This document shows positions 24,289-57,929 of a stretch of 64,000 nucleotides of DNA, in pieces. Source of the DNA: Deltaproteobacteria bacterium (GTDB taxonomy: Bacteria > Desulfobacterota_D > UBA1144 > Nemesobacterales > UBA2774). Made by a program: the position numbers and the translations under genes. The notes below the pieces were generated by a model that searched no databases, had not been told where the DNA came from, and worked only from the letters and a program-made list of their open reading frames with translations. Position 1 is the stretch's first letter, and the number at the start of each line of letters is the position of its first letter. The stretch is taken from the NCBI GenBank assembly GCA_040223695.1, contig JAVKFU010000015.1, positions 632,692-696,691 on the forward strand, given 5' to 3'.

Positions 24289-24487
24289 TTGCTGGTTTTT
24301 ATGACGGTTATTTCTTCGATACTTAATAGTTAAGCAAGCCCTCCGACCGTGCGCTCGCAGGCAGTCAAAGAGTACCTACCCCGGCGCCTGAATCGAACCT
24401 ACAGCATAAATCACAATGCCGCTTGACTTAGAGTGCGCTCTAACTTGTATACTTTCAATTGATTCAGAAAAGACGAGGAATAATAGG

Positions 24488-24880
24488 ATGAATAAACCGT
24501 TAAAGATAAAAGACGTCTCGGAGTTAACGGGGCTAAGTAAACATACTCTCAGATACTATGAGAAAATAGGCCTGATTGACCAAGTAAAAAGGAGGGGTGA
24601 CGGCCATCGTTACTACTCCGAAAACGATGTAGCCTGGATAGAGTTCCTGAATAGACTCCGAGTAACGGGAATGCCTATAAGCCGGATGAAAACATTCGCA
24701 GATCTCAGGCGGAAAGGTAATTCAACAGCGGGGGAACGCAGGGAGATGCTCGAGAATTTTAAGGACGATTTATACCAAAGGCTGACTGATCTTAGTAAAC
24801 ATCTGGAGGCAATTGAGAAAAAGATAAAACATTACAAAGAACTTGAAAAAAAGACGAAGTCAATGAGGAGTAAGTCATGA
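24488..24880 (+). CDS. MerR family transcriptional regulator
   Basis: Start at MNKPLKIKDVSELTGLSKHTLRYYEKIGLI. HTH, then coiled-coil dimerisation helix. Confidence 0.85.
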   Translation: MNKPLKIKDVSELTGLSKHTLRYYEKIGLIDQVKRRGDGHRYYSENDVAWIEFLNRLRVTGMPISRMKTFADLRRKGNSTAGERREMLENFKDDLYQRLTDLSKHLEAIEKKIKHYKELEKKTKSMRSKS

Positions 24881-25404: not shown

Positions 25405-27006
25405 ATGTCTTCAGAAATAGTCAGATACATAAACAAAAAAGACGCCGAACTGCTTCATGAAATAGAACTAGCAGCTAACCAATCAGATCACGACACAGCT
25501 CTAAGATTAACAGAAGACAGACTCGCTAAACCTATCGATTTGTCTCGGCCATCAGAAAGACTACTTAAAGGATCACTAGCCGGTTGGCTAATTGACATAG
25601 GGACTGAATCCGGACAGGAACAAATTGTTAAAAAAGGTCTTTCTATCTTGGAGAATGAGGAGGCGGTCCTTCGTAAAAATGTAACTCAAGCCAGCTATGA
25701 TTATAATATTGGAAACGCTTATAGTTCATTATTTGACCTTAAAAAAAGTAAACCTGGTTTCAAATTAAATCCATCCGAAATCCAAGACATCGTTAAGAGT
25801 AAATCTCGATATTGGAGAGCTTACAAATCCCTACAAACACACGATAGAGCGTTCTGGGCAAAGTTGTGGGTCAACCTTGGTAATTGTTTGTTAAAATGCA
25901 ACCGAGTTGTAGAAGCGATTATATACTATGATGATGTAATTACTGAATATCCGAAATTTCCACAGGCAAATGCAAGCAGGGCTGATGCCTTACTCAAATT
26001 AAATGAAATATCAGATACCTATTCAATCAATTTACTCGCTCAAGCGATTGAGGGGTATTCAGTAGCAAGCGATTTTGCAGATACATTGTACAATCGTCAA
26101 GCTTGGCATATGCGCTCAGAATTACTGAAACAAAAATTATTAGAACATGGATACGACAGCAAAAATATAGAACATGAAACTTCCGAAACTGAATCAGAAC
26201 ATAATCAGCACTCAAAATATCGTAAATTTTGCTTAGAACAACATCTATCCCTTTCTGAGCATTCTATTTACTGTGGATGCGCTGGAGCTAGAAGTGATGA
26301 TCTCACAGTACCTAAATCATCCGGGCCAATAGGAGGTAATTTTGTTCCTAGAATGGAGTTCATATTAAATCGAGTTAAGTCAGAGTTTACATTTGCTAGA
26401 TTGATGTATTACCAAGCAGTACTTCCTTTAGAATCCGAATGGGACCTCTTGGAAGATGAAATCCGAATAACACAACTATTTGAGGATGAGATGCATGGCC
26501 CTCGCTCTGAAATGCTACGTCTGAGTTTTCGAAATTGTTTTGCAATACTTGATAAAATTGCAATGGCAATTTGCGAATTATTCGAATTAGCTCAGCCTAA
26601 GGAAGTATTATATTTTGAGAGCTTCTGGCGATCCCGATGGGAACGTATAAACCAAATCGATAATCCGGCAATAGTTGCCCTATACGCACTCGCTACAGAT
26701 TTAAATAGCAAAACAGGAGATTGGCCTGAGTTTAAAGAATGGCGTAATGCAATTGAACACAGAATCTTTTGTGTTCTTCAAAAGGAAAATTTTCACTCTG
26801 ACCCCTATTCTGTAGTTAATCAAAATGCAGGGGACCTAGTCGTTCCGTTAGATGTATTCCATCAGCGCGCTTTATTTTTATTAAGATTGACCCGTTCCGC
26901 TATATTCAGCTTTGTATTTTGTGTACGTTATGAAGGTTCTAAACTTACCGAAGGTGATCCTAGCAAAGCAATTACGCTAAGAGGCCGCAATGAGGAAAGC
27001 GGATAA
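25405..27006 (+). CDS. TPR-like + C-terminal HEPN-domain protein (LA2681-like; predicted RNase/defence protein)
   Basis: The C-terminal region contains RNAIEH, matching the HEPN Rx4-6H (RNxxxH) motif. The N-terminal about 250 aa are helical and TPR-like. The gene lies in a markedly AT-rich segment. Confidence 0.5.
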   Translation: MSSEIVRYINKKDAELLHEIELAANQSDHDTALRLTEDRLAKPIDLSRPSERLLKGSLAGWLIDIGTESGQEQIVKKGLSILENEEAVLRKNVTQASYDYNIGNAYSSLFDLKKSKPGFKLNPSEIQDIVKSKSRYWRAYKSLQTHDRAFWAKLWVNLGNCLLKCNRVVEAIIYYDDVITEYPKFPQANASRADALLKLNEISDTYSINLLAQAIEGYSVASDFADTLYNRQAWHMRSELLKQKLLEHGYDSKNIEHETSETESEHNQHSKYRKFCLEQHLSLSEHSIYCGCAGARSDDLTVPKSSGPIGGNFVPRMEFILNRVKSEFTFARLMYYQAVLPLESEWDLLEDEIRITQLFEDEMHGPRSEMLRLSFRNCFAILDKIAMAICELFELAQPKEVLYFESFWRSRWERINQIDNPAIVALYALATDLNSKTGDWPEFKEWRNAIEHRIFCVLQKENFHSDPYSVVNQNAGDLVVPLDVFHQRALFLLRLTRSAIFSFVFCVRYEGSKLTEGDPSKAITLRGRNEESG

Positions 27007-27087
27007 GCACTTCAATTTGACTTTCCGATATTTTGCTCTATTTAATGTATTTTAATATCAAAACACTGACTATGGAGGTACAAGTTA

Positions 27088-27408
27088 ATGATATGTCAGA
27101 ATTGTCGAGAAAACATAGATAGTGAAGATGCAAATCTGCCTTGTCCAAAATGCGGCTCAATGGACAGACAACTTCACATTAAGGATTCAGCAAATCTTGC
27201 TGATGCAGGCAACTTGATTAAAACCTTTTATAAAATACATCCAGAAATTCTTGTTTTGACAATATTGCTCGCCTTCATTGGAATATTAGTTGGAATACAT
27301 TTGAATCCGATTTATGGGGTAGTTATTAACTTTATAGATTTGACCTTGTTTTTTCTACTTCCACATTGGATAGAAAAAACAAATGAAAACTCTATCTTTA
27401 AGGAGTGA
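27088..27408 (+). CDS. small zinc-ribbon membrane protein
   Basis: CQNC...CPKCGS zinc ribbon followed by two TM helices. AT-rich, and co-located with the HEPN gene. Confidence 0.4.
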   Translation: MICQNCRENIDSEDANLPCPKCGSMDRQLHIKDSANLADAGNLIKTFYKIHPEILVLTILLAFIGILVGIHLNPIYGVVINFIDLTLFFLLPHWIEKTNENSIFKE

Positions 27409-27412
27409 AAAA

Positions 27413-27808
27413 ATGAAACTAGATGAATTCATTTACAAGCTGTGCACTGAGGGGAAAAACTTCGCCGCAGTCGCAACAGTGATGCCCGACGGCTCGCCTC
27501 ATGTGAGTCTCGTCTGGGTGGACTCGGACGGGGAGCATATAATTATCAACACCGCGGAAGGACGCCTTAAGCCCGAGAATATCAGACGCGACAACAGGGT
27601 CGCCGTATCTGTTTTCGACGCCGAAAATCCCTATAAACAGGCAATGGTACAGGGAGTAGTCGTTGAGGATACCCACGAGGGGGCGGAAGAGCATATTAAC
27701 CGTATGGCTAAAAAATATCTGGGCGTGGACGAATATCCTCATGGCGGGCCCGACGAGAAAAGGGTTATATTTAAGATTAAGCCCGAGAGTGTTTTCAAGC
27801 TCACGTGA
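27413..27808 (+). CDS. pyridoxamine 5'-phosphate oxidase family (PPOX class) FMN-binding protein
   Basis: Start at MKLDEF after ggag. AAVATVMPDGSPHVSLVWV...IINTAEGRLK is typical of the PNPOx-like split barrel. Confidence 0.7.
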   Translation: MKLDEFIYKLCTEGKNFAAVATVMPDGSPHVSLVWVDSDGEHIIINTAEGRLKPENIRRDNRVAVSVFDAENPYKQAMVQGVVVEDTHEGAEEHINRMAKKYLGVDEYPHGGPDEKRVIFKIKPESVFKLT

Positions 27809-27984
27809 TACCGTACTCAGTGCTCAACGCTTTATTAGGATACTCGGACCGTCATCCACTGCCCGCTTTACCTGAAATACAGTAGATCGGCGGCTTCAGA
27901 ACTTCACATGAGAGCCCTTTAAAAAAGCCCTCGAACAGCCGCATCGAGCCATTCCAGGGCTTTTTCAAAATCTGATAAATATTT

Positions 27985-28149
27985 AGAGACTTATTATGAC
28001 TGGGTTCCGGAATCACCCGAGTCAGATGGCTGCTCCGTTGTAGCGCCTTTATCTTTACCGCCGCACGCTAGTACGTTTGAGGTAGTCAGAACCGCGCCGC
28101 CGAGGGCCAGTCCCAGAGTTATCGCGAGTGTGAATAAAATCCTTTTCAT
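27985..28149 (-). CDS. small lipoprotein (51 aa, below the ORF-track size cut-off)
   Basis: The reverse complement translates to MKRILFTLAITLGLALGGAVLTTSNVLACGGKDKG.... GCAGGAGGT lies upstream of the start. Confidence 0.45.
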
Positions 28150-28338
28150 GAATCTTACCTCCTGCTGGTTTAAGAATAAAGTGTAGCTTAGAGTGTCGGA
28201 TTTTACCAGTTTTATTATCGTAATTAAAAGAAGTAATATGCAAATTTTTCTTTAAGGGGCGAATAGAAGAAAGATTTTTGCGTCTTTTTTCCCTTTTCGC
28301 GTCTATTCTGATGAGAACAAAAAATAAGGAGGCCCGAC

Positions 28339-28440
28339 ATGGCAGAGCAGGAAACAAAAGAAATCAGGTGTGAATGCGAGAATTGCAAGTGTGAGAACTG
28401 TGTTTGCGAATGTAAGTGCACTAGCTGTGATTGCGGTTAA
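28339..28440 (+). CDS. 33-aa cysteine-rich metallothionein-like peptide
   Basis: Sequence MAEQETKEIRCECENCKCENCVCECKCTSCDCG, with 10 Cys in 33 aa arranged as CxC. A strong RBS AAGGAGG lies 7 nt upstream. A hairpin with an 11-bp stem follows the stop codon. Confidence 0.5.
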   Translation: MAEQETKEIRCECENCKCENCVCECKCTSCDCG

Positions 28441-28584
28441 AGAGCCGGGGAAGATTCCGCGCGGGCGCATCTACCCTTTATGCCATATAATATAAGGTAT
28501 GCGCCCGCGGGATAATTATTACTCATAATTCCTTCCCCCAATCGGGGGGAAGGTTAGGATGGGGGATATATCAATTAAGAGAAG

Positions 28585-29190
28585 TTGGACATGGCGGAAA
28601 CAATAAATGGCAGGAATATAATTATGGAAAACACGCCGGAGACTGCTCAGGTATGGGAGGAATTTTCGGGGAACATCAGGTCGCATCTGCTCAGAAAGCT
28701 CAGGCGAAAGGACGACGCGGATGACTTGATGCAGGAGATTTTTATAAAAATACACACGCACATCGAATGCCTGAGGGATAAGAAAAAACTCACGTCCTGG
28801 ATATATACGATAGTCGAGAATACGCTCAACGACTATTACAGGAAGAACAGATATGATTCGGAATTTGACGAGAGCAGGGCCGCTACCAAAGATTCGGCAG
28901 AAGAAAACCCACTGCCCTGCATTACGCAATGCCTGAACGTATTCATAGACCGGTTGCCTATGAAGTACCGTGAGCCGCTCATGTTGAGCGATTTAGAGGG
29001 TAAAAAGCAGAAAGAAATAGCGCGGCGAATGGGTCTCTCCTATTCGGGGCTTAAGTCCAGAGTGCAGAGGGGTCGCCGGATGATAAAGGATATGTTCATC
29101 GAGTGCTGCAAGCTTTCTTTCGATGAAAAAGGGGTAATAAATAAAGAATATCAGGGGATGGAGAACTGTAAAATTTGCGGCGGGGCTTGA
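28585..29190 (+). CDS. ECF-type sigma-70 family sigma factor with Cys-rich C-terminal extension (SigZ-like)
   Basis: Region 2 reads DLMQEIFIKIH. Region 4 reads LSDLEGKKQKEIARRMGLSYSGLKSRVQRGRRMI. The C-terminus reads ECCKL...CKICGG. Confidence 0.75.
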   Translation: MDMAETINGRNIIMENTPETAQVWEEFSGNIRSHLLRKLRRKDDADDLMQEIFIKIHTHIECLRDKKKLTSWIYTIVENTLNDYYRKNRYDSEFDESRAATKDSAEENPLPCITQCLNVFIDRLPMKYREPLMLSDLEGKKQKEIARRMGLSYSGLKSRVQRGRRMIKDMFIECCKLSFDEKGVINKEYQGMENCKICGGA

Positions 29191-29324
29191 TCCGGGTCGG
29201 AAGGTTGTTTGGAATCCGGCTTTAGTGTAGCTTCAACCAAAATATTATCACTAACCATAGCTATATAAACAGCGTCTCATAGCGTTTATATTATAGATAA
29301 CTACACTAGAAAGGGGGCCGAGAA

Positions 29325-29687
29325 ATGATAGAACCAATCACGGGTCTTCCGGAAAATGTTCTCGGGTTTACGGCCAAGGGAAAAGTAACGGCCGAGGATT
29401 ATGAGAAAGTCCTCATACCGGAGGTTGAGAAAAAGCTGGCCAAATTTCCCAAAATTCGTTTCCTTTATTACATAGGGGACGATTTTGAGTCATACGAGGC
29501 CGGAGCGATGTGGGAAGACGCTAAGGTGGGTTTAGGTCATATCACGTCGTGGGAGAAGATAGCGATTGTGACCGATGTCGAGTGGATACGCGTTATGGGG
29601 AAAGTATTCGGCTTTGCAATGCCTGGGATAGTCCGTATTTTCAACAACGATGAGCTCAAGTCCGCAATTGAATGGGTGAGTGAGTAA
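29325..29687 (+). CDS. STAS/SpoIIAA-like (DUF3478-type) domain protein
   Basis: 120 aa. The pattern resembles SpoIIAA-like general stress proteins. RBS aagggggc lies upstream. Confidence 0.4.
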   Translation: MIEPITGLPENVLGFTAKGKVTAEDYEKVLIPEVEKKLAKFPKIRFLYYIGDDFESYEAGAMWEDAKVGLGHITSWEKIAIVTDVEWIRVMGKVFGFAMPGIVRIFNNDELKSAIEWVSE

Positions 29688-29700
29688 AAGTCCGTCCTCG

Positions 29701-29995
29701 ATTCAGAATGTTATTTTTTTACTTTTCCCGACATCACAGAATTGGTGTGAAGAAAATCGCTTGTTAATGCGTTAAGAAATATTTTAGGACGATTCCGAAC
29801 AAGCGAGGAATCGGACGCCCTACGCTATATACAATAATGTTCACATTCTTGCCTCAGCTAACCGCGAACTAATCAAGGAGGAATTAAAACATTTTAGCGT
29901 TAACATGAGATTTTTAGCCATATTCTGTGGAGTCGATGATTTTTGCTTCTTTTCATCAAGGAAAAGAAGAATCTATCTTTGCCTTTTAGTCGCTA
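29701..29995. repeat. modular composite intergenic repeat (modules B-C-D), copy 1
   Basis: Contains tcccgacatcacagaattggtgtgaagaaaat, ggacgattccgaacaagcgaggaatcggacgccc and ggaattaaaacattttagcgttaacatgagatttttagcc...gatttttgcttcttttcatcaaggaaaagaag. All three modules are shared with copies at about 34.96, 45.76 and 63.76 kb. Confidence 0.8.
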
Positions 29996-30091
29996 TTCTG
30001 AAACGTTGAAGCCACTGCAGCGATCCCGCCTACTCTTTCTTTCCCTCCCCCTCACAGGGGGAGGGTCAGGGCGGGGGTACTAACTCCCCCC

Positions 30092-33000
30092 TCAATTCAG
30101 TCTCTTCGCCCCCGCATCCTGTATCGCGCTCCTCAGTCTTCCGCCCTGCCGTATGCTCCTCACCAGCATGTTCTCTATCTCGGTCCCTATCGACGCCGCC
30201 GTAGCCCCCGAGCCTCCGTTCACGTTCACGTTGATATCCACATGCATCTCGCCTGAGCCTCCCTCGTCTCCGCCTATCCTCTCGACAAACCTGCTTAACA
30301 GTCCGTCCCCTGTGCCTATACTCTCACGGAACTGGTCCGCAAGCCCCGGCCCACTCGCCACAGCGCTCACGAACTGATTTATCAGCCCGGCCCTCAGCTG
30401 CACGAGCTGGTCCTCGGTCAGCACGGCCTCCCTTCCGTGCAGCACCGCAAGCGTCCCCCTGCCGAAGTCCCGTATCAACCCTCCCGTGCCCTCGGCGAAA
30501 CCCTGCACGTTCTGCAGCACCGACTCTATCGACCTCAGCACCACAAGCTGCTCGTCGTTTATACCCGCTATCGCCTGAAGTCCCTCGATCTCGTTATCGA
30601 ATCCGAACTCGCTCACTTCCTCGAGCTGCGCAAACCTCTCCTCCAGTATCCTTATATACTCCCCGCGTATGAACTCAAACAGCTCTATCAGCCTCTGCGA
30701 CGCCTGGAATGTATTCTGCGCCGTCTGCTCCCCTATGGCCGACAGCCTGTCCTGCAGCGCCTCTATCCGCGCGTCTATCCGCTCGATCTGCGCGTTCTGC
30801 TCCTGGGTCAGCCTCTCTATCTCGGCGTTTATCTCCTCTACTGACCGCCCCCTCGTCTCGGTCAGCTCCGCAAGCGCGTCGAGCCCTCCTGTTACCTGAT
30901 CGAATATAGCCACGAACTCGGGCGAATTCACTCCGAACGCGTCCCCGGCCACGTCGAACAGGGTTTTGAACGCGTCCTCGAGCCGGGCTACGATCTCGAC
31001 CTGCCTTTCGGGATCTACTGTACCGGCAAGCTCCTGCTGAAGCTGCGCAATATTCGACTGTAGCGCGTTTACCTGCTCCACTCCCGTGAGCACCGACTCC
31101 GGGCTGAACAGTATCGAGTCGAGCGTACGCCTTATGGATTCCGCAAGCGACGCGAACTCCTCCGCCAGCCTCAGCTCCTCGTTAAGCGCGTCTATACGCT
31201 CGTCAAACGCCTCCTGTATCCGCTCCTTCTCCTCGTTAAGCCCGTCTATTCTTCTCTCTATCGCCGCTCTTTGCGCCTCGGCAGCCCTTCGGGCCGCTTC
31301 CTGCCGCGCCTGAAAAGCCGCCTGCTCTTCGGCGAGCAATTGGTTCCCCAATCCCGCTAGGTCGTCCAGCAGCGCCTCCTGCTCCGAAAGCGACAGGTTC
31401 TCTATATTGTCCGTAAAGAAGCCCTGCACCTGCCCAATCGCCGTATTGAGGAACCCGGTCAGGTCCACTGAGCTTCCGCCGAATCCCGCGATAGTGCTGT
31501 TAAGCTGGCTTATCTTCCCAATCAGGCTCGATATGGAGCTTACGATTTCCGACGTCAGCGACAGTATCGCGTTTCTCAGCTCGACGTAGTTCTGCACCGT
31601 CTCCGGGTCAAGCTCTGCGTTCTTGATTAATTCCCCTAGCTCTTCCGTCAGTTGATCAATGGACGGCACGGCGTCGAATCCGAGCGTCCGGGAGAGCGAA
31701 TTTACGGAATTAATAGTCGTCCCTATCGCGTCATTTATATTCCCCTCTACTATGTTGAACGCATCGACAAAGGCGTTCAGATCGGCAAGCAGATCCTGCC
31801 CCACTGCCGCTCTCGCCTCCCTCGACCCTGCGCTCTCGAATTCCCGGAATCTCTCGTCGAGGAACGATGCCGCCGCATCGGGCAGTACCCCGAGCGACTC
31901 GAACATGGTCTGCAGGAATCCGTCCACCGCGAACAGGAACTTCGCCTGTATCTCCCCGTTTATAAGCTGATTGAATTTCTCCGCTATCTTCTTCCCCTTG
32001 GCGTCAAACTCGAAAAGCCTCTCCCCCGCGACTACCGTCTCCGTATCAAGCTCCGTATTCAGAAGCTCGTCCGTGAGCTTGTCCGCGAGGTCAGCCGGAA
32101 GCTTGTTGATAATATCCAGAAGGTTATTTACTGCCCCCTGTATCGCGTCGCCTAGAATCTCCTTTATCTTATCCGAGCCGCCAACGCCCAAACCGGCGCT
32201 TCGCTTTACGGATATGTCTATTATGTCGTTTATCAGGGTATCGGTGTCGAGCAGTTCGGATATAAACGCCGCCCTGCGCTCGCCTTCTTCTTTTATGCTG
32301 TCAAACTCTATGTCCAGACGAGGTGTCTTCTTGAATAAGCCGGATAGTAATGGGATGGCTAATGCCGCGGCAACGGCAACTGCACCGAGAATTGACAAAG
32401 CTCCACCTATCCCGCCAATACCTGCAAGAAATCCGGTTGATGGAAGCTCCCCGGCAGCTAAAGTCCCTACACTCACTCCACCGGTCAATCCTCCGACACC
32501 GAGACTTCCTGGCACAGCTGTAGCGGGTATTGTTGCAGCCGCTCCGCCTGCAAATCCAAATAGACCTGCAATTCCGGAACCGCCACCTAATATATCTCCA
32601 ATACTTCCGCCTATACCACCAACACCGCCAACAATATCTGCGCTTCCTCCAGCGCCTCTGGCACTTCCTGCCAACCCGAACAGTGCCCCAATACTTACCA
32701 CAATCTGCTTTGTGACAATCGCCGCAACAAGGTCGAGAAACGACCTGAGTATCGCCTCAAAAGCCTGCTTCACCAAGTCCTTTAAATCCTCAAACTTCCC
32801 GGTCAGCACGTTGAAAAATAAGTCGGAGAAATTCTGACTCATCTGGCTGAGTGTGTTAGCAAAGAAATCCGCTATGAGTTCACTATTCGACCCTACGGAT
32901 TCAACAAAATCCTCGAACCCCTGTTTTATTCCCTCAAAGAATCCGCCAGATTCATTCAGGTTTTCCACTCGCTCCGAAAACTCATCTAACCCCCCATCCG

Positions 33001-34027
33001 CCGCCGTTTGAGCCGCAGTATCTACACCCTCCACACTCGTGCTCATCGTGTCTATAGACTTGCTTGCTTGTCCGGTCTGGTCTATCACACCTTGAAGCCC
33101 GTCTTGACTTAGGTTGTTGGTAGATTCTGTAACATCCTCAGTAACACCGAGAAGTTCCCCCAACTCTTCTTTCGTATGCCCGAATATTACTGCCCCTTCC
33201 CCCGCGTTTTTAACTAAATCAACAAGAGATGTCGAAAATTCACCCTGCGCTGTAGTCCCTTCCTTCATCGCCGCAGACTGCTCCAAGGCCGATTCTCTAG
33301 CTTTATCGTATTGCAGACTAAGACCCTGTAATGTCAGACGGAGGGTCTTAAAACCCCTGTCTTGTTCATCAATTGCCCTTTGTAATTGCGTTGATACTGA
33401 TGGTCCAATAAATTCCTCTAAGCCACGACGTTGAAAATCCTCAACTTTTAGGTCAGGAATGTCAACCGTTAATTCAGGAATTTCTATACCCTCGATTTTA
33501 CCAAATTCTTCATTCAAATCACTCTGTAGCGCTTCTCTATATGCCTGCGCTAACTCTTCAATTGTTCTTCCTTTCGCAAGAAATTGTTCAAATTGTCTTT
33601 TAGCTATTTCTTGCAAATTACCTTCAATAGGTTCTGCTTTTTGGGGATTAACAAAAGGTCTTAGATCTACTGGCAAATCAACTATCACGCTTTCATTAGT
33701 GAACGGTTCCAGAATATCTTTAATAAGCAAGTTGATATTATGACCAATTTCCGCAGCCTGTTCACCACCAATCAACTTTGCAGCGTTCGTTAAAATATTT
33801 CCAAATGGAGAATTTGTTTTAAAAACTCTGTCAAATGCAGATTCCGCTTGTTTCATTGACGATTCAACATCTTTATTAAACTTGAAAAAAGTAGATTCTG
33901 ATGTTTTAGTAATAAACTCAAATCCGTCTCTAAATTCTTCGAATGTACTATTAGCTGTCTTTCCTAATTGTATTAATTGCTCATCTTCTACAATAAACTT
34001 GACCGTAATTTCATTTATCTCTGCCAT
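30092..34027 (-). CDS. giant helical protein, phage tail tape measure protein-like
   Basis: 1311 aa with no signal peptide. Long coiled-coil segments. A central Gly-rich hydrophobic block, GGIGGSIGDILGGGSGIAGLFGFAGGAAA...ALAIPLLSGLF, is typical of tape measure proteins. An AT-rich promoter region lies upstream. Confidence 0.5.
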   Translation of the reverse strand: MAEINEITVKFIVEDEQLIQLGKTANSTFEEFRDGFEFITKTSESTFFKFNKDVESSMKQAESAFDRVFKTNSPFGNILTNAAKLIGGEQAAEIGHNINLLIKDILEPFTNESVIVDLPVDLRPFVNPQKAEPIEGNLQEIAKRQFEQFLAKGRTIEELAQAYREALQSDLNEEFGKIEGIEIPELTVDIPDLKVEDFQRRGLEEFIGPSVSTQLQRAIDEQDRGFKTLRLTLQGLSLQYDKARESALEQSAAMKEGTTAQGEFSTSLVDLVKNAGEGAVIFGHTKEELGELLGVTEDVTESTNNLSQDGLQGVIDQTGQASKSIDTMSTSVEGVDTAAQTAADGGLDEFSERVENLNESGGFFEGIKQGFEDFVESVGSNSELIADFFANTLSQMSQNFSDLFFNVLTGKFEDLKDLVKQAFEAILRSFLDLVAAIVTKQIVVSIGALFGLAGSARGAGGSADIVGGVGGIGGSIGDILGGGSGIAGLFGFAGGAAATIPATAVPGSLGVGGLTGGVSVGTLAAGELPSTGFLAGIGGIGGALSILGAVAVAAALAIPLLSGLFKKTPRLDIEFDSIKEEGERRAAFISELLDTDTLINDIIDISVKRSAGLGVGGSDKIKEILGDAIQGAVNNLLDIINKLPADLADKLTDELLNTELDTETVVAGERLFEFDAKGKKIAEKFNQLINGEIQAKFLFAVDGFLQTMFESLGVLPDAAASFLDERFREFESAGSREARAAVGQDLLADLNAFVDAFNIVEGNINDAIGTTINSVNSLSRTLGFDAVPSIDQLTEELGELIKNAELDPETVQNYVELRNAILSLTSEIVSSISSLIGKISQLNSTIAGFGGSSVDLTGFLNTAIGQVQGFFTDNIENLSLSEQEALLDDLAGLGNQLLAEEQAAFQARQEAARRAAEAQRAAIERRIDGLNEEKERIQEAFDERIDALNEELRLAEEFASLAESIRRTLDSILFSPESVLTGVEQVNALQSNIAQLQQELAGTVDPERQVEIVARLEDAFKTLFDVAGDAFGVNSPEFVAIFDQVTGGLDALAELTETRGRSVEEINAEIERLTQEQNAQIERIDARIEALQDRLSAIGEQTAQNTFQASQRLIELFEFIRGEYIRILEERFAQLEEVSEFGFDNEIEGLQAIAGINDEQLVVLRSIESVLQNVQGFAEGTGGLIRDFGRGTLAVLHGREAVLTEDQLVQLRAGLINQFVSAVASGPGLADQFRESIGTGDGLLSRFVERIGGDEGGSGEMHVDINVNVNGGSGATAASIGTEIENMLVRSIRQGGRLRSAIQDAGAKRLN

Positions 34028-34217
34028 TTCCAGTACCTTGATTAACGTATCGACAAATTAATCTTTCACTATACGTTTACTTTATTCCTTAGATAGATTT
34101 ATAGGTGTTTGCTTGCAATCCCTCTATATTTAGAACCCTTTATTTATATTGTTGATTAATGGATACATATATGTAATTACTTAACTAGACTTCATATTCT
34201 TATTCTTTTATAATAGC

Positions 34218-34544
34218 GTGATGAAAGAAATCTGCTCCAATTGTCTTTACACCGGTGAGTCCGGTCATAGCGGAAGAAATGCTTGCAGGTTCCCTTTGGC
34301 GGGCCTGCTATTGGGAGTGGGTGTAAACGGTATTACAAGCGTAATACCGGATAGTGAAACTTCCGGTTCCACGCTCGTACTCGTAATAATTACTATTGCT
34401 TGTTTATTTACCGCCTTCTATTTACTTTACAGGTGTATCAATAAGAGCAGGAGAGCATGTCCCAAGTGTAACTATGGCGATATGATTGAGATGAATACCC
34501 CGGAAGCGGACAAACTAGTGGAGCAACATAGCCTGAAAAATTAG
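34218..34544 (+). CDS. split zinc-ribbon membrane protein, paralog 1 of 4
   Basis: N-terminal CSNC, two TM helices, C-terminal CPKCNYGDMIEMNTPEADKLVEQHSL. Confidence 0.55.
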   Translation: MMKEICSNCLYTGESGHSGRNACRFPLAGLLLGVGVNGITSVIPDSETSGSTLVLVIITIACLFTAFYLLYRCINKSRRACPKCNYGDMIEMNTPEADKLVEQHSLKN

Positions 34545-34566
34545 TTTTATATTCTCAAATACAAAC

Positions 34567-34914
34567 ATGCAAAAACTTTGCCCAGAATGTAACTATATTG
34601 GATACGAATCCCGTGGACAGAAATCACTTTTAATATGGGGAATAGCTTTAACTATTTGGGGAGCAATAACACTACTTGGCGCACTTATGCTTTATTCCTT
34701 TTCCGTTAGGATACTTGCGTCAGTAATTTGGCTCTCATTTGGTGTTGTTACCTTATATTACTACATTCATTACCCAAACATATGCCCAAACTGCAAGCAG
34801 AAAAAAACCATGATCCCTCTCGACACTCCCAAAGCCCAGGCCCTAATTAAAGATCACAACCTGACTATCCCGCAAGAAACATCACAACAGTCCAGCCCCA
34901 AAACCACTCAATAA
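34567..34914 (+). CDS. split zinc-ribbon membrane protein, paralog 2 of 4
   Basis: MQKLCPECNYIGY..., two TM helices, ...CPNCKQKKTMIPLDTPKAQALIKDHNLT. Confidence 0.55.
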   Translation: MQKLCPECNYIGYESRGQKSLLIWGIALTIWGAITLLGALMLYSFSVRILASVIWLSFGVVTLYYYIHYPNICPNCKQKKTMIPLDTPKAQALIKDHNLTIPQETSQQSSPKTTQ

Positions 34915-34959
34915 CCGAACATATCTACCATCCTTTTTTATCTGTCATTCTGAATGTAA

Positions 34960-35245
34960 ATTAGAAATCTCGTCTTTGTATTACCCTTCTCGACATTCAC
35001 GGAATTGGCGTTAAGAAAATAGAATATTGAGGCGTAAAAATCTTTCCGGGACGATTTCGAGCTAGCGAGGAATTGGACGCCCTTTCCTATAAGAAATAAT
35101 GTAATTAGTCTCGCTTCACTAAACCACGATTCTAATCAGGGTTGAATTAAAAGATTTTAGCCGAGATAGCCCATTTTTAGCCACATTCCGTGCAGTCGGT
35201 GATTTTTGCTTCTTTTCATCTAGGAAAAGAAGAAAGATGATTTAT
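34960..35245. repeat. modular composite intergenic repeat, copy 2 (full length)
   Basis: About 85% identical over about 280 bp to the 45.76-kb copy. Confidence 0.8.
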
Positions 35246-35655
35246 CTTTTTCCCGCCCAGCCTGAACCTTTCGAAGAATGTCATTTAGAGCGCAGCCGAG
35301 AAATCTATTCATTTATCCTTTAGAGTCTGTCATTCTGAACCCTGTCCTGAACTCGTTTCAGGATCATTTCAGAATCTCGATTTTCATCTTTCAATCCTTT
35401 AATTCCCTCCTTAGTAAAAGGAAACGAATGCGAACGTGTGAGCATTTAGACGCCTTTAGTTAAAAGCACTTATGCCCATTATCTACCGGCACATAAACTC
35501 TTGGAATAAAATAGGGTGGATTTAAAATACAATATAAAAACCTCACCTACGCCGCTAGCCTATACTCCACTTCCTCTACATTAACCTTATTATCATATAA
35601 CTGAACGACCACTCTCCCTTCATCCTCAAAATCCCAACTGTGTTATAATTTCCTG

Positions 35656-36030
35656 ATGCAAAAACTCTGCACCAATTGCAATTTCATCGGCAAAGGTAAG
35701 CACGGCCTCTTGTCCGGCAATATCTATGTCGGAATAATAGAAGTAGTTGTGGCGGTAATTATACTCTTTACAGGCCAGAAGCTCCTTCAGTCTTTTATAT
35801 ACGGAGCCGTGGTCGCGGCAATAGTAGCAATAGCCGGACTGATAAATATTATGGACTCGTTCTCGGAGGGCCGGCTCTGCCCTAACTGCGGCAAGGACAA
35901 GATGATCCCGCTCGACACTCCCAAAGCCCAGGTCCTCATCCAAGAACACAACCTCACAGTCGGCGATAATGTCCCCCAAAACACGCAGAATGACCAAAAA
36001 CCAGACCAGTTTGAAGCCCCCAAATCTTAA
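35656..36030 (+). CDS. split zinc-ribbon membrane protein, paralog 3 of 4
   Basis: MQKLCTNCNFIGKG..., two TM helices, ...CPNCGKDKMIPLDTPKAQVLIQEHNLT. Confidence 0.55.
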   Translation: MQKLCTNCNFIGKGKHGLLSGNIYVGIIEVVVAVIILFTGQKLLQSFIYGAVVAAIVAIAGLINIMDSFSEGRLCPNCGKDKMIPLDTPKAQVLIQEHNLTVGDNVPQNTQNDQKPDQFEAPKS

Positions 36031-36214
36031 ATCCATCTCTTAACTTCCATTCATAACCAACTATTATTCCAACATATTTATAGTAACACTGCAATACTTC
36101 GACCCACCTTTGCAACCACAGCGCCACAACCCCGCTTTTGTTTTTTTCATTCCCCCCCTTAGAAAAAGGGGATACAGGGGGATTTTTCCTATTTCTTATT
36201 CCCTAATGCCTTTT

Positions 36215-36395
36215 CCTTTCCCGACATTCACAGAATTGGCGTTAAGAAAACAGATTATCGAGGCGTGAAAATCTTTTAGGAATGGGGCTGAATTAACAGA
36301 TTTTAGCCGAGATGGTCTGTTTTTAGCCAAATTCTGTTAAGTCGATGATTTTTGCTTCTTTTTATCAAGAAAAAGAAGATATAATTTTTTGCTTT
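36215..36395. repeat. modular composite repeat, partial copy (modules B+D)
   Basis: Contains cccgacattcacagaattggcgttaagaaaacag...gatttttgcttctttttatcaagaaaaagaag. Confidence 0.7.
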
Positions 36396-36522
36396 TTTCC
36401 CTTGTCACTACATGTCGGGTAAAACCTCTCGGCAATCTCAAACCCCCCTTATCCTGAGCCCGGTCAAAGGATAAATACATGCCCCGCTTTCAATCCCTCA
36501 CCCATCCATTATCCTATCCCTG

Positions 36523-36930
36523 GTGAAAAAACTCTGCACAAACTGCTTCTACATCGGATACGAAGACAGGTCCACACACGGGAGCTTCAAGACCGAGTCC
36601 ATCCTCTGGGCGGTTGCCTTTGTCCTCGCATTCACGGGCGTTTTCGAGTCCGACCTATGGCTGCCGGCAACCATAACATTCGCACTCGCCTTTTTCTATA
36701 CTCTGACCATCTTCAGGGTAAAGATATGCGTCTGCCCAAGGTGCGGCCGCGACTCCATGATCCCGCTCAAAACCCCCAAGGCGGAGGCTATAATTCATGA
36801 GCACCACCTCGTGATGCCCAGCGAATTCAAAAATCCTGCGCGCACGATCTTCGGCCTCACATTCCGCGACGCGCTCCTCATCCTCACCACCATCCTTATA
36901 ACCGTCATGCTCTACAACCACTTCACCTAA
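36523..36930 (+). CDS. split zinc-ribbon membrane protein, paralog 4 of 4 (GTG start)
   Basis: VKKLCTNCFYIGY..., TM helices, ...CPRCGRDSMIPLKTPKAEAIIHEHHL. An extra C-terminal TM helix is present. Confidence 0.5.
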   Translation: MKKLCTNCFYIGYEDRSTHGSFKTESILWAVAFVLAFTGVFESDLWLPATITFALAFFYTLTIFRVKICVCPRCGRDSMIPLKTPKAEAIIHEHHLVMPSEFKNPARTIFGLTFRDALLILTTILITVMLYNHFT

Positions 36931-36939
36931 CTACTCATT

Positions 36940-37900
36940 CCCACTTAATCCTTTTTCTCCCTCTCTCTTGAGGGAGAGGGTAAGGGTGAGGGGGCACCTT
37001 CTGTTAAGTCGGCGATTTTTACTTCCTTTCATCAAGGAAAAGAAGATATAATTTTTTGACTTACCCTTGTCATTGCGAGCGCAGCGCGGCAATCCCAAAT
37101 CCGTCATGCTGAACTTGTTTCAGCATCTAACCCTTTGCCTTTCCCCTTCCGTCATTCTGAATTCATTTCAGAATCTAGAATTTTGCTTTTGCCTCCCTTT
37201 CACCCCTCCATAATCTCAAGAATCCTATTGACTCCATACCCCCAAATCATCTATAATAATTACGGAGGTAATTATGACAAGCGAGTGTGACAGCCCACCA
37301 GACAGGTTGGTCGAAAATTCGTGAGATCCGAAAATGGTGAGTACTTAAACAATCACCATAAATAATAGCTAAAACTAGCTATTGCTTAAAAAAAGCATAC
37401 AAACCAAAAAGGGAGCCACAGTGCTCCCTTTTCCATTTCTAGATATAGTAAACATTATTTGTCATTACAAACGAATGTGAGAAATCTAACCCTTGCTTTT
37501 TCTTCGTCATCGCAAACCGCAAAGTGGAACGACAACGTCGCATTATCGAAGTTTGTCATGCTGAACTACGATTTCGAGTAAGTAAGGAATCGGGTCCATT
37601 GACAAATTGCAACCGAGTAAGTATTCCCCTATCATGCCAGTCCAAACCCAAAACTTTCAGCATCTAGCCTTTCGTCTTGTCCATTCTGACATTCACATAA
37701 TTAGCGTCAAGAAAATCTTATGTTGATGCGTCAAAATGTTTTGGGCCGGGGCGGAATTAAAACATTTTAGCGTTAACATGAGATTTTTAGCAATATTATG
37801 TGCAGTCGGTGATTTTTGCTTCTTTTCATCTAGGAAAAGAAGAAAGTCTTTATCTTTTAGTCATTGCGAGTGGAGCATATTATGCGTAGCGCGGCAATCT
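36940..37900. repeat. about 1-kb non-coding cluster of stacked repeat units
   Basis: Contains the gagggagagggtaagggtgagggggc hairpin, a D-module end at 37.00-37.05 kb, gtcattgcgagcgcagcgcggcaatc, gtcatgctgaa, cattctgaattcatttcagaatc, a gtcatgctgaactacgatttcgag...gaggaatcgggtcc C-type unit, and a B+D composite at 37.69-37.87 kb. Confidence 0.75.
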
Positions 37901-37910
37901 AATCTTTTCA

Positions 37911-38240
37911 TTAAGAGCCAGCAATACCCCTACGGCGCCCGAGAGCCTCAATCCCTTCCCCCTTGGCGCCCCTTTTCATTTTCCTCTCCTGAGACTTCAG
38001 GGCAAACTCTCTGAACGCCTCATCCACGGCAATCACTACCCGAAACGCCCTCATCTTCGGATGCCCCTCGAACTCTAGCTTCTCCAGGTTATTCCATATC
38101 TCGGAATGCACCAGTGTGCCTACGGTCATCCCCTGCCCGTAGCGCTGAGACTGGCATAGCTCCCATAGAGATACCCACTCCCGCTGGTGCTGGGGGAGGT
38201 TCCGTATAAATCCTTCCGTCTCGTCCCCCGCCTTTTTCAA
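37911..38240 (-). CDS. downstream -1-frame ORF of a G/GT-like pair (candidate frameshift extension)
   Basis: Its frame is open upstream to about 38476, so it overlaps the last about 52 codons of the 38321..38890 ORF in the -1 frame. No conventional start or RBS of its own. Basic sequence. Confidence 0.4.
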   Translation of the reverse strand: MKKAGDETEGFIRNLPQHQREWVSLWELCQSQRYGQGMTVGTLVHSEIWNNLEKLEFEGHPKMRAFRVVIAVDEAFREFALKSQERKMKRGAKGEGIEALGRRRGIAGS

Positions 38241-38320
38241 TATGCGAAGCTCGTCCCTGTCGTTCTTTTCAAACTTGAGCCTGTTCTTCCGCCTGAGTTT
38301 CCTCTTTTCTTCGAGCTGAC

Positions 38321-38890
38321 TTACCCTGCGTCTGATTGAGTCTGCGCGGTACCTTCTTTTTTCCCCTTTGAAGCGGACTTCGAATCCCTCGTATATCCGC
38401 TCGAAGTACTCCCTGACTCTTCCAAAAAATTTTCCTCTTCTTTCTTCTCCTCCTTCGTGACCTTGCCGGCTATGAGCTCATAGCTCGACCTGAAGTTGCT
38501 AAGCAGGAAAGAGGACTTACAGAACTCATTGTAGAGCCATTCTTTAGTGTCCTTGTCGTATAGCACCCGCTCGCCCTTGTCGGTAAGCCCTGTAATGTCC
38601 TGTATGAGGTTATATACCAGGAACTTCGCGGCGCGCTTCGGGTCTCCTCCGAGAATCTTGAAGCTCCTGTCCTCGACAGTCAGGTCTTGCGTAAGGTCCC
38701 TTATCTGAGTAAGCCTCGCCACTGTCGGGTACGGACACTTGAACCCCACCTCGCGCCAGCCCTCGTCGTAACCCACCCACTCGCCTTTCTCGTCCTGGTA
38801 AGCGGGCCAGTCCTCATCCTCTATATCCCTGTAGGGATATATCGTCACATAATTTGATACATGTTTGGTCAAACTCTTAATTTCAGGCAT
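38321..38890 (-). CDS. acidic protein, phage tail assembly chaperone (gpG)-like candidate
   Basis: 189 aa, acidic (EDEDWPAYQDEKGEWVGYDEGW). Its 3' end holds T TTT TTG (about 38422-38428) and GGGGAAAAAAG (about 38355-38365), both inside the overlap with the downstream -1 ORF. Confidence 0.4.
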   Translation of the reverse strand: MPEIKSLTKHVSNYVTIYPYRDIEDEDWPAYQDEKGEWVGYDEGWREVGFKCPYPTVARLTQIRDLTQDLTVEDRSFKILGGDPKRAAKFLVYNLIQDITGLTDKGERVLYDKDTKEWLYNEFCKSSFLLSNFRSSYELIAGKVTKEEKKEEENFLEESGSTSSGYTRDSKSASKGKKEGTAQTQSDAG

Positions 38891-39130
38891 ATCCCCTCCT
38901 TTACACTATTGCACTATGTCATTCTGAACTTCGTCCTGAACTCGTTTTTCAGGATCTATTCAGAATCCAATCCCTTCCCGCTCATCCTGAGCCTAGTCGA
39001 AGGATGTCATTGAGTGGTTGCAAAGCAACAGCGGCAATCCCGTCTTTCTCTCGTCATTGCGAGCCGCAAAGCGGCGCGGCAATCTCGTCCTTTCCCCTCA
39101 ATCATTTAATCCCCTACCGGGAAAAGAAAA

Positions 39131-39178
39131 GCTAAAAAAGGGCTGTTAGCATTCATTTATTGAATATAAACAGCCCCT
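39131..39178 (-). terminator. rho-independent terminator after the 491-aa gene
   Basis: Minus-strand hairpin aggggctgtt-loop-aacagccct, followed by a TTTTTT run. Confidence 0.55.
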
Positions 39179-39190
39179 TAGCAATAATCC

Positions 39191-40666
39191 TTAAACAACG
39201 GCCTCAACCATATCCTCAACTGTTGGCTGGTTGTTCTTCACCGTAACTGTAATGTCCGTATTCGGCGCGCTGCTGGTATCAAGCCTGCCAAGGAAGCTCT
39301 TCTCATCCGTCACCGGGTCCTTCGAGCTCACGCCCGGATGCGGACTCCCCTCGAACTTGGCTTTGGGCACGCTCATTGTCACCTGATGGCTGTTGTCACC
39401 GATATAGGTCCATATAAAGTCGAGCTGCGTCTCTGTTCCCGCAACTGTCTTCTCAGCGAATTGCTGGCTTCCGTACTGATAAGTGAATGAGCCGCTTACA
39501 GATCCTTCCCCGGGGGTGATCGCGCCCTTGATCGGCGACCCTACGACGAAGTTACCCTGTATGGTATTCTCGATCACGAGACTCAGGTTTTCAAACTGGT
39601 TTGTGGTCTGCTCCACACTGTCCACCTGCACGCTCGATTCCCAATGTGCGTAAGGAATGTTTTCAATCGAGGCCGGAGTCCCGAATATGTTCTCTGACAG
39701 TATTTGAAATGCCTTCCCTACTACGTTCATATTGAGCTGCGGAAGGTCGGTCGGGTCCACGTTAAGAGTAAGATTGCTTACCTTGTTCCCCCTGATAAGC
39801 ATGAGCGATTCAATATCGGTAAACCTCAGAAGGAAACTGATACCCTCGGGAATGGTGGAGCCTCTATAAATCGTATGTGTGAAGGGTTTAATTACTTCAT
39901 CGCACGCCGCCCCGTTAGAGTGAGCCTTCCTGAGCCCGTTGGGATGAGCAGCCGAGTCCAGCGTAAGCTGCCCCGCAGCCGTGCTGCCTATCTTTACAAT
40001 CTCTGCGTCATTTCCCGTGCTTAACTGAGCAAACTCACCGGCTGCGAAACCAACTTCGGATGTCACTGATACCGTTGTATCTCCGGCGGAAGCCGCTGCC
40101 GACAAAGTCGTACTTGCCCCCGCTGTTGACGTTCCGACTGTGGTGTAATCACTATTCAAGGCGTGTAAGTAAAACAGCCCCACTGTCGCTATATCGAGCT
40201 CAACAGTCATATCCGCTCCTGTGTCATAGTTTCCCTCACGGAAGTTTGAAAGTACACGCGAGCCGGAGAGCGCCTGCGACCTCTGCAGATCTCTTCCGCC
40301 GGACGGTGTGAAGGACCTCACGTTACCTAGCTTGAACCAGTTATTAGCCGGGTCTACCTCAACCACAGCCTCCCCCGATTCATGCCTGTAGTTTATCTTT
40401 GTGTTCGCGTCGAGACTCACCGTCGTGCCAGACACGTAACCTGCATCCACCTTTACGAATTCCATATTGTTGTCGTTCCCGACCTTAAGAATATCCCCCG
40501 CCGCGATATTAGTATCGCTCGCTACCGTAACGCTAGTCGCTCCGGGGTTAACAGCTGCGGCAAGCGTAGTGGACGCTCCGCCCCCGACCGCGGCTGACGG
40601 CGTCACGCCGTTTACCTGTTCAATCTTGTACCAAATCTCCGCACTTGAGCCTGAAGCCTGTGCCAT
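39191..40666 (-). CDS. hypothetical structural protein with two tandem ~100-aa N-terminal domains; possible phage major tail protein
   Basis: 491 aa, no signal peptide. Thr/Ser/Ala-rich and beta-rich. An internal duplication is visible (ASTTLAAAV...TSVTVAS...AAGDILKVGND / ASTTLSAAASAGDTTVSVTSEVGFAAGEFAQLSTGND). The phage assignment rests on gene-order context only. Confidence 0.3.
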   Translation of the reverse strand: MAQASGSSAEIWYKIEQVNGVTPSAAVGGGASTTLAAAVNPGATSVTVASDTNIAAGDILKVGNDNNMEFVKVDAGYVSGTTVSLDANTKINYRHESGEAVVEVDPANNWFKLGNVRSFTPSGGRDLQRSQALSGSRVLSNFREGNYDTGADMTVELDIATVGLFYLHALNSDYTTVGTSTAGASTTLSAAASAGDTTVSVTSEVGFAAGEFAQLSTGNDAEIVKIGSTAAGQLTLDSAAHPNGLRKAHSNGAACDEVIKPFTHTIYRGSTIPEGISFLLRFTDIESLMLIRGNKVSNLTLNVDPTDLPQLNMNVVGKAFQILSENIFGTPASIENIPYAHWESSVQVDSVEQTTNQFENLSLVIENTIQGNFVVGSPIKGAITPGEGSVSGSFTYQYGSQQFAEKTVAGTETQLDFIWTYIGDNSHQVTMSVPKAKFEGSPHPGVSSKDPVTDEKSFLGRLDTSSAPNTDITVTVKNNQPTVEDMVEAVV

Positions 40667-40803
40667 ATTGTTCCACCTCCGGTTTTTATATAAAAAAGCC
40701 CGGAACGGCCTGAACCGCCCGGGCTTATATTTTTAATTTGTTATTAGTCATCCTGAATTTATTCAGGATCTAAACTTTTATGATCTAATCCGCTTTCATG
40801 AGA

Positions 40804-57620: not shown

Positions 57621-57929
57621 TTTCCCCCCTCTAGTGCCATAATCTTCAAACAAACGTGAAACGCCAAAGGATGCCGCGTCTAACCTACGCGAGAAATCTT
57701 TCTTTATTTTTTATTTCCTTCCCTTCGGAGAGGAACGGTTCTAAGCAACGATTGCGCGCGAGTAAGCAGTCGAAGTAGCTAGTCTAAATGCAAGCCTGCA
57801 ATATTTTATTTCCTTCCCCCCTATAGGGGGGAAGGTCAGGATTGGGGGTGCAGATGCGACTAAAAAGAGCTACCAGACGCCTTCGCTTACCTCGCCATAC
57901 CCCCTAAATCAGCGACCTATATTTCCCTC

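Follow-up and report, generated by a model that had tools for sequence, protein, structure and literature searches.

A conserved cysteine-rich micro-protein gene upstream of sigZ, a candidate metallothionein-like effector of an ECF sigma factor operon

What is the function of a 33-codon, cysteine-dense open reading frame (ORF) that precedes the gene for an extracytoplasmic function (ECF) sigma factor in a deltaproteobacterial genome? The question is raised by a 64,000-nucleotide stretch of contig JAVKFU010000015.1 (assembly GCA_040223695.1, forward-strand positions 632,692 to 696,691), which is referred to below as the window and numbered from its first letter. The ORF is almost certainly a real and conserved gene. 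Its product is probably a sink whose thiolates take up a thiophilic metal or metalloid, with feedback on SigZ, the sigma factor encoded downstream; a probability of about 0.6 is attached to this reading, which is derived from comparisons of sequence and gene order.

The preliminary description of the locus, made from the letters alone, had reported an unannotated ORF of 33 codons in which ten residues (30%) are cysteines and none is aromatic. The ORF was confirmed at those coordinates, with its ATG at 28339 and its TAA at 28438-28440 (Table 1), and translation gives 33 amino acids with ten cysteines and no Phe, Trp, Tyr or His. The source metagenome-assembled genome (MAG) carries no annotation for this ORF, the neighbouring SigZ being annotated as MEQ9618979.1, and the peptide sequence is missing from a collection of 15 billion proteins. 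A near-perfect ribosome-binding site had also been described; the AAGGAGG sequence is present, although its spacing to the ATG is 6 nucleotides and not 7. AGGAGG-type sites stand at a matching distance in the 11 deltaproteobacterial-type loci, and A-rich leaders take their place in the peptide genes of Bacteroidota. When the nucleotides of the ORF were shuffled, none of 100,000 shuffles contained an open frame with at least ten cysteines, and the observed cysteine fraction of 0.30 is the highest among the 687 window ORFs of at least 25 amino acids (the runner-up reaches 0.16). Within the window's clade, differences in the peptide gene are in excess at third codon positions and the MAEQE.K N-terminus is kept despite synonymous changes, a substitution pattern that indicates purifying selection at the protein level. 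The antisense frames of the gene are also open because of its codon composition; a plus-strand orientation is nevertheless shown by the promoter motif, by the ribosome-binding site and, in the Bacteroidota, by the T-run of the terminator.

Table 1. Positions of the peptide gene, its predicted signals and the adjacent features in the 64,000-nucleotide window
Feature	Position	Strand	Description
51-aa lipoprotein-like ORF	27994..28149	-	Divergent; lipoprotein-type signal sequence; conserved neighbour
Candidate SigZ-type ECF promoter	28279..28305	+	-35-like TGCGTCTTTT, -10-like CGTCTA; ends 33 nt before the peptide ATG
Shine-Dalgarno sequence AAGGAGG	28326-28332	+	6 nt before the peptide ATG
Gene for Cys-rich, metallothionein-like peptide	28339..28440	+	33 codons, MAEQETKEIRCECENCKCENCVCECKCTSCDCG; supported by chance tests, orthologues and synteny
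Intercistronic hairpin	28460..28509	+	Arms CGCGGGCGCAT/ATGCGCCCGCG; 28460-28470 pairs with 28499-28509; 28-nt loop
Dispersed REP-like element	28531..28567	+	CCTTCCCCC-N4-GGGGGGAAGG then TTAGGATGGGGG
sigZ, ECF sigma factor (SigZ family, ECF238)	28585/28591-29190	+	TIGR02959 match; 144-150 nt downstream of the peptide gene
STAS/SpoIIAA-like gene (PF11964)	29325..29687	+	Directly downstream of sigZ

Since the peptide alone gives no significant similarity matches, the family was delimited by synteny, for which SigZ loci were fetched and their upstream DNA was examined. A phmmer search with the peptide against 1.84 billion representative sequences returned 0 matches, and an exact look-up in the 15-billion collection retrieved 2 of 18 family peptides, both unnamed. 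A search of 5.8 billion clusters with a profile of the peptides yielded five called proteins without a single functional name among them, and wherever downstream DNA exists each of the five is followed by a gene with sigma70_r2/r4_2 domains, so that the synteny is reciprocal. Altogether the peptide-sigZ pair was found in 22 loci from two bacterial lineages, cultured type strains among them, and hardly any of the peptides carries an annotation. Where SigZ is at least 54% identical to that of the window and upstream DNA is present, a Cys-rich ORF lies on the same strand 45-456 nucleotides upstream of sigZ in every locus (11/11), its cysteines kept across TGT/TGC codon changes; the presence of the ORF and of its cysteine pattern in close relatives, to which the preliminary description had looked for support, is thus borne out. 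In 83 other ECF loci, fetched as by-catch and used as controls, no Cys-rich ORF stands beside the sigma gene.

The second lineage belongs to the Bacteroidota and consists of cultured species, namely Mesonia ostreae, Cellulophaga algicola DSM 14237, Kaistella flava, Hwangdonia lutea, Tunicatimonas pelagia and Mariniflexile ostreae. In all six loci an unannotated ORF of 37 amino acids with 14 cysteines, the first of them at residue 4, is located immediately upstream of sigZ, and none of the six peptides is present in the protein collection. Their alignment is gapless, with all 14 cysteines invariant and encoded by both TGT and TGC, and third codon positions hold 257 of the 438 nucleotide differences between the genes. 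Identity among the peptides (65-81%) parallels identity among the SigZ proteins (63-78%), and the two diverge at the same rate.

The preliminary description had called the peptide metallothionein-like, a term that holds for its composition and fails as a statement of membership in an established metallothionein sequence family. The small size and the abundance of cysteines in CxC and CxxC spacing that mark metallothioneins are found in the window peptide and in the 12 aligned family members, whose cysteine content ranges from 26 to 38%; the scarcity of aromatic residues and absence of His extend to the same 12 members, none of which contains F, W, Y or H. Only two metagenomic peptide variants carry a Tyr, in each case a single one replacing a Cys. 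The Bacteroidota peptides have no Pfam, NCBIfam or PDB match. By composition, therefore, the peptide is metallothionein-like, and by sequence it falls outside every established metallothionein family.

SmtA/BmtA and MymT, the bacterial metallothioneins whose function has been studied, are controlled by ArsR- and CsoR-type repressors (PMC7387436, PMC10141476), and comparison with them brings out both likenesses and differences. SmtA/BmtA with SmtB, in cyanobacteria and Pseudomonas, is likewise a small, cytoplasmic, Cys-rich sink whose gene stands beside that of a dedicated metal sensor (PMC7387436), the sink function being a proposed one in the present case. In sequence the family described here does not match the prokaryotic metallothioneins of Pfam. 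SmtA adopts a zinc-finger-like fold with His ligands and aromatic residues; the peptide has neither and is about half the size. The sensor of SmtA/BmtA is moreover a divergently encoded ArsR/SmtB repressor, whereas here an ECF sigma factor encoded in the same operon would act as an activator. MymT, the mycobacterial Cu(I) metallothionein of the RicR regulon, which is induced by a thiophilic metal (PMC7387436, PMC10141476), is comparable as a very small, lineage-restricted bacterial metallothionein that annotation had overlooked, but it is under CsoR-type repressor control, belongs to another family with another cysteine pattern, and with the tools used no similarity to the peptide was detected. 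Eukaryotic Cu/Zn metallothioneins, such as the vertebrate beta-domain and the fungal copper metallothioneins, share the size, the cysteine content of about 30%, the CxC/CxxC spacing and the lack of aromatic residues, but the corresponding match to PF12749 is sub-threshold, and this resemblance is most likely one of convergent composition.

Expression of the peptide gene appears to be tied to SigZ by a sequence motif, T-G-C/T-G/A-T-C-T/C-T-T-T, N12, C-G-T-C-T-A (that is, TGCGTCTTTT-N12-CGTCTA), which precedes every inspected peptide gene that has upstream DNA. From the end of the motif to the ATG the distance is 27-51 nucleotides, and 32-33 in most loci. The fetched DNA holds 41 instances of the motif, of which 38 share the same spacing, the copy in the window being one nucleotide shorter; this copy is the only one in the 64 kb, where 0.03 would be expected. 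The motif occurs in 36 of 79 SigZ-like loci as against 1 of 83 control ECF loci, and a scan of both strands placed 26 of 27 instances on the strand of the sigma gene. ECF promoters with a CGTC-type -10 element have a geometry like that of TGCGTC, 14-15 nucleotides and CGTCTA. A generic scan for sigma-70 promoters and terminators gave nothing above chance and overlooked both the ECF-type motif and the U-less hairpin described below. It is quite probable that the peptide gene is transcribed from a SigZ-type promoter; the exclusive association of the motif with sigZ and its fixed spacing suggest SigZ as the sigma factor concerned.

The nature of the response is indicated by more distant SigZ-like loci (30-43% identity), in which the same motif precedes detoxification genes. 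The genes behind it encode ArsI/CadI-family enzymes (NF041414, 120-198 bits, cut-off 116) and arsenite methyltransferases (ArsM; NF008823, 311-369 bits, cut-off 263), along with one Cu/Zn-efflux-like or ArsP-like permease whose match is below threshold (NF033936, 131 bits, cut-off 300). An ArsM gene is adjacent in 20 and an ArsI/CadI gene in 11 of the 79 SigZ-like loci, and each is adjacent in 0 of the 83 controls. Seven loci have the order promoter, ArsI or ArsM, sigZ, in which the enzyme gene takes the slot that the peptide gene holds in the window; on the basis of this shared promoter-proximal slot, the peptide is argued to be an effector of a thiophilic metal(loid) response. The ars-linked SigZ-like loci include L091, L092, L094, L098, L099, L102, L109, L112, L116, L122, L125, L131, L140 and L143, among others. 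The arrangement points to a previously undescribed control of arsenic detoxification genes by a sigma factor, separate from ArsR.

Between the peptide gene and sigZ lies the hairpin with an 11-bp stem that the preliminary description had placed downstream of the ORF. The stem is GC-rich, its folding z-score is -3.75, and the folding energy is about -25 kcal/mol, within a range of about -20 to -28 kcal/mol across loci. Of the 13 pairs, 8 show compensatory changes, for example from GCGGGCGCA/TGCGCCCGC to GGGTACACA/TGTGTACCC, and when ORF and hairpin are folded together the minimum free energy structure keeps the hairpin in each of ten loci. In 10 of 14 loci 5-24 nucleotides separate the stop codon from the hairpin, and in one (L081) the distance is 130. 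In the Bacteroidota a canonical intrinsic terminator occupies the same position, and the sigZ ATG follows within about 15 nucleotides. The hairpin is probably a partial terminator or a stability element, and it and the Bacteroidota terminator may act as leaky insulators that would allow far more peptide than sigma factor to be made. A scan of positions 27000-30200 with Rfam gave no credible match. Within the loop (28480-28498) the sequence TATAATATA is near-invariant across loci, a degree of conservation that a loop does not require. It might act as an internal -10 element from which sigZ is expressed at a basal level, but no acceptable sigma-70-like -35 element was found upstream of it.

The downstream gene had been described as a Cys-rich, SigZ-type sigma factor 145 bp away, which agrees with the interval in Table 1 and with the TIGR02959 equivalog model, on which the window protein scores 182.6 bits (cut-off 168.65). 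The Mesonia orthologue scores 147.2 bits, below the cut-off, with the SigZ model nonetheless as its best match. The annotated start of sigZ is ATG 28591 and the longest ORF begins at TTG 28585; homologues align from ATG 28624 (MENTPETAQVWEEF...), so the annotated start is probably too far upstream and the true one may be ATG 28624. The cysteines of SigZ comprise C114 in the linker between sigma2 and sigma4 and, after sigma4, a CC...CxxC tail formed by C172/C173, C193 and C196 (CC-x19-C-x2-C). The window's clade shows no variation at C114, C172, C193 and C196, and the tail is present in nearly all of 28 SigZ-like proteins compared, including those adjacent to ArsI or ArsM. No solved structure covers the tail, and the AlphaFold model combines a confident core with a cysteine tail of pLDDT about 55, for which reason it is uninformative on a metal site.

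A mode of action for SigZ is suggested by CorE and CorE2 of Myxococcus xanthus (ECF44, now within ECF238), with which SigZ has been grouped in ECF238; these sigma factors have no anti-sigma factor, and metals switch their activity by binding to a linker CxC and to a C-terminal extension rich in cysteine (PMC7826278, PMC8999054, PMC4937300, PMC6851896). The window SigZ likewise has a Cys-rich C-terminal extension and a linker Cys. No anti-sigma domain was detected in the neighbours tested, the peptide and the STAS protein being without an assigned role. Metal-detoxification genes adjoin the genes of CorE and CorE2 and are their targets, and both sigma factors autoregulate only in part (PMC4937300, PMC6851896). 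The targets known so far encode ATPases, a multicopper oxidase and a CDF pump; a metallothionein, the kind of target proposed here, is not among them. By analogy, the window SigZ likely works in a CorE-similar way. It passes the equivalog model named after the SigZ of Bacillus subtilis (ECF238 subgroup 9), whose inducer, regulon and promoter are all unknown (PMC7826278). A literature search of incomplete coverage turned up no paper in which SigZ/ECF24 is connected with ars genes, a Cys-rich peptide or a promoter motif.

Taken together, these features suggest a model in which the peptide would be a cytoplasmic, metallothionein-like micro-protein, with ten thiolates in 33 residues, that acts as the promoter-proximal effector of a SigZ (ECF238) operon. 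A thiophilic metal(loid), for which As(III)/methyl-As(III), Cd, Zn, Cu or similar are candidates, would bind the linker Cys and the CC...CxxC tail and render SigZ transcription-competent, as in CorE/CorE2. RNA polymerase carrying SigZ would then use the TGCGTCTTTT-N12-CGTCTA promoter about 33 nucleotides before the peptide ATG, its dependence on this sigma factor being presumed. The strong ribosome-binding site would ensure efficient translation of the peptide, and the terminator-like hairpin would pass only some transcripts on to sigZ and the STAS gene, with the outcome that the peptide greatly exceeds the sigma factor and SigZ is subject to weak positive autoregulation. The peptide thiolates may finally sequester the inducer, which would both detoxify it and withdraw it from SigZ, a negative feedback. 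Arsenic species are the best lead for the inducer, followed by Cd, Zn and Cu. A bolder version, possible but doubtful, holds that the SigZ-type (ex-ECF24) sigma factors are unrecognised, widespread one-protein sensors of arsenic and thiophilic metalloids that use the TGCGTCTTTT-N12-CGTCTA promoter, and that the peptide is a micro-metallothionein for As(III) and soft metals, at once a sink and a ligand-competing off-switch, the two genes forming a homeostat without an anti-sigma factor.

Several observations weigh against the thiolate-sink reading. In the window's clade no ars or metal-efflux gene stands beside the operon, and Pfam, NCBIfam and PDB profile searches with the family peptides gave zero matches above threshold, the best being to PF12749 at 16.5 bits (cut-off 22), obtained for 2 of 12 members. 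The motif is assigned to SigZ by association and geometry, and in the window's clade the hairpin has no U-tract, which leaves its role as a terminator uncertain. The linker CxC of ECF44, strictly conserved and essential in CorE/CorE2, is missing from the window SigZ, which has PCITQC (CxxxC) with C114 as the only invariant linker Cys; because this defining feature is absent, the protein is not filed as a CorE-type member. The CC...CxxC tail, finally, could bind zinc for structural reasons and have no sensing role.

The peptide might instead be mainly a regulator of SigZ, one that competes for the ligand, hands it over or binds the sigma factor, thereby setting the induction threshold like an anti-sigma factor or metallochaperone. 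This explanation, which overlaps the feedback part of the favoured model, draws on the finding that across phyla only the peptide and sigZ always travel together while other neighbours vary, on their equal rates of evolution, on the normal co-transcription of ECF sigma genes with their regulator and on the lack of a known anti-sigma factor for ECF238 sigma factors (PMC7826278). It is nevertheless unlikely: a chain of 33-37 residues with almost no hydrophobics cannot form a known anti-sigma domain, the gene holds the slot of ArsI/ArsM effector enzymes in related operons, the usual place of an anti-sigma gene is 3' of its sigma gene, and the intervening terminator implies a large excess of peptide, which fits a sink better than a stoichiometric partner. 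A role as thiol buffer for non-metal stress (disulfides or oxidants, electrophiles, reactive sulfur), with SigZ sensing thiol chemistry, is made less likely still by the regulon of the relatives, which consists of ArsI/CadI, ArsM and a Cu/Zn-efflux-like or ArsP-like permease and not of thioredoxin- or peroxiredoxin-type genes. Dense CxC/CxxC spacing without aromatics is also the classic signature of a metal-thiolate cluster, and a thiol buffer is decidedly improbable even though oxidants often trigger cysteine-based sensors (ZAS-type logic, PMC6851896) and no metal gene adjoins the operon in the window's clade.

The preliminary description had offered as an alternative that the peptide is the precursor of a ribosomally synthesised and post-translationally modified peptide (RiPP); in the form considered here, its cysteines would be the modified residues. 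In favour are its small size, its many cysteines and the conserved MAEQE.K segment at its N-terminus, and six deltaproteobacterial-type loci have a PqqD-like chaperone, an HprK-related kinase-like protein and a methyltransferase nearby on the opposite strand. That block, however, is missing from the 64-kb window and from 6 of 6 Bacteroidota loci, whose neighbours differ from genome to genome, and it has a candidate substrate of its own in the 51-aa ORF; the neighbourhoods have no radical-SAM enzyme, cyclodehydratase, lanthionine synthetase or exporter in common, and a first Cys at residue 4 leaves the Bacteroidota peptides no leader. Because no modification enzyme travels with the peptide, the alternative is weakened; it was rejected on the inconsistent neighbourhoods and is very unlikely. 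Attenuation would offer another explanation, in which the ORF is a leader peptide of Cys codons, ribosomes stall on it when Cys-tRNA is scarce, and formation of the hairpin controls sigZ. A short ORF rich in one type of codon, a strong hairpin 5-24 nucleotides on (a true terminator in the Bacteroidota) and then a regulated gene do resemble such a device, but there is no conserved antiterminator pairing, the hairpin stays in all ten minimum free energy folds, and its distance from the stop codon varies from 5 to 130 nucleotides. The non-Cys residues and the spacing of the cysteines are kept at the protein level and aromatics are excluded, none of which a leader needs, and the regulated gene is that of a sigma factor and not one of cysteine metabolism. 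The attenuator model was rejected on folding and variable geometry and is scarcely credible.

The remaining features of the region were examined for their relation to the operon. The STAS/SpoIIAA-like gene directly 3' of sigZ recurs in that position in L078, L079, L083, L160 (two copies) and L161. In partner-switching systems, proteins of the STAS type serve as anti-anti-sigma factors; neither a kinase nor an anti-sigma partner for this one was found nearby. The small lipoprotein reported divergently upstream corresponds to the 51-aa ORF of Table 1, which has a mature part of about 22 amino acids (CGGKDKGATTEQPSDSGDSGTQS) and as a whole is 60-98% conserved across loci, with relatives in L078 (2500-2655), L160 (2347-2502), L080, L082, L085, L001, L002 and L083. 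Elsewhere this ORF belongs to a minus-strand block with a Cys-free S-adenosylmethionine-dependent methyltransferase, a PqqD-like chaperone and an HprK-related kinase-A-like protein, the matches of the last to TIGR04352/TIGR04353 being sub-threshold; of this block the window has the small ORF only. A peptide-modification system not yet characterised may use the ORF product as its substrate. The divergent methyltransferase was considered as an ArsM and rejected, having zero cysteines and a score of 71 bits (cut-off 263).

A second hairpin (28531-28553) was likewise rejected as a feature specific to the operon, being part of a dispersed repeat. The repeat is an element of about 45 nucleotides that comprises a hairpin, CCTTCCCCC-N4-6-GGGGGAAGG, followed by YYAGGATGGGGG; it is intergenic, conserved between MAGs and without an Rfam match. 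Besides the copy in Table 1, the plus strand of the window carries copies at 57812-57835 and 61834-61858, and others were found in L079, L080, L082 and L110; the element looks like a repetitive extragenic palindromic (REP)-type repeat or an unknown small RNA motif. Downstream of the operon, a phage-tail-like cluster occupies 30092-41931 on the minus strand; among its products are a Phage_tube_2 protein (39191-40666), a beta-helix protein (40804-41931) and a tape-measure-like protein of 1311 amino acids. In L078, L160 and L164, small genes on the minus strand follow the operon in runs. Just upstream of the locus lie plus-strand genes for a MerR-family regulator (24416-24880) and a 533-aa protein with TPR and HEPN (LA2681-like) domains (25405-27006); no link between either of them and the peptide operon was found.

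To our knowledge, functionally studied bacterial metallothioneins fall into only two lineages, SmtA/BmtA and MymT. If the thiolate-sink reading is true, the peptide family would add a third and much smaller one, and its gene would give the first case of an ECF sigma factor with a built-in sensor controlling a metallothionein-like gene. To judge from the searches described above, this micro-metallothionein-like family and its sigma-type control are new; the family spans two phyla and escapes annotation even in complete type-strain genomes such as that of Cellulophaga algicola DSM 14237. The promoter, sigma factor and peptide together form a compact candidate part for the biosensing or sequestration of metal(loid)s. 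The SigZ group, whose function has been unknown since the B. subtilis genome, gains a candidate promoter motif, a candidate regulon (the peptide, ArsI/CadI and ArsM) and a candidate class of inducer, all of which are directly testable in cultured Flavobacteria.

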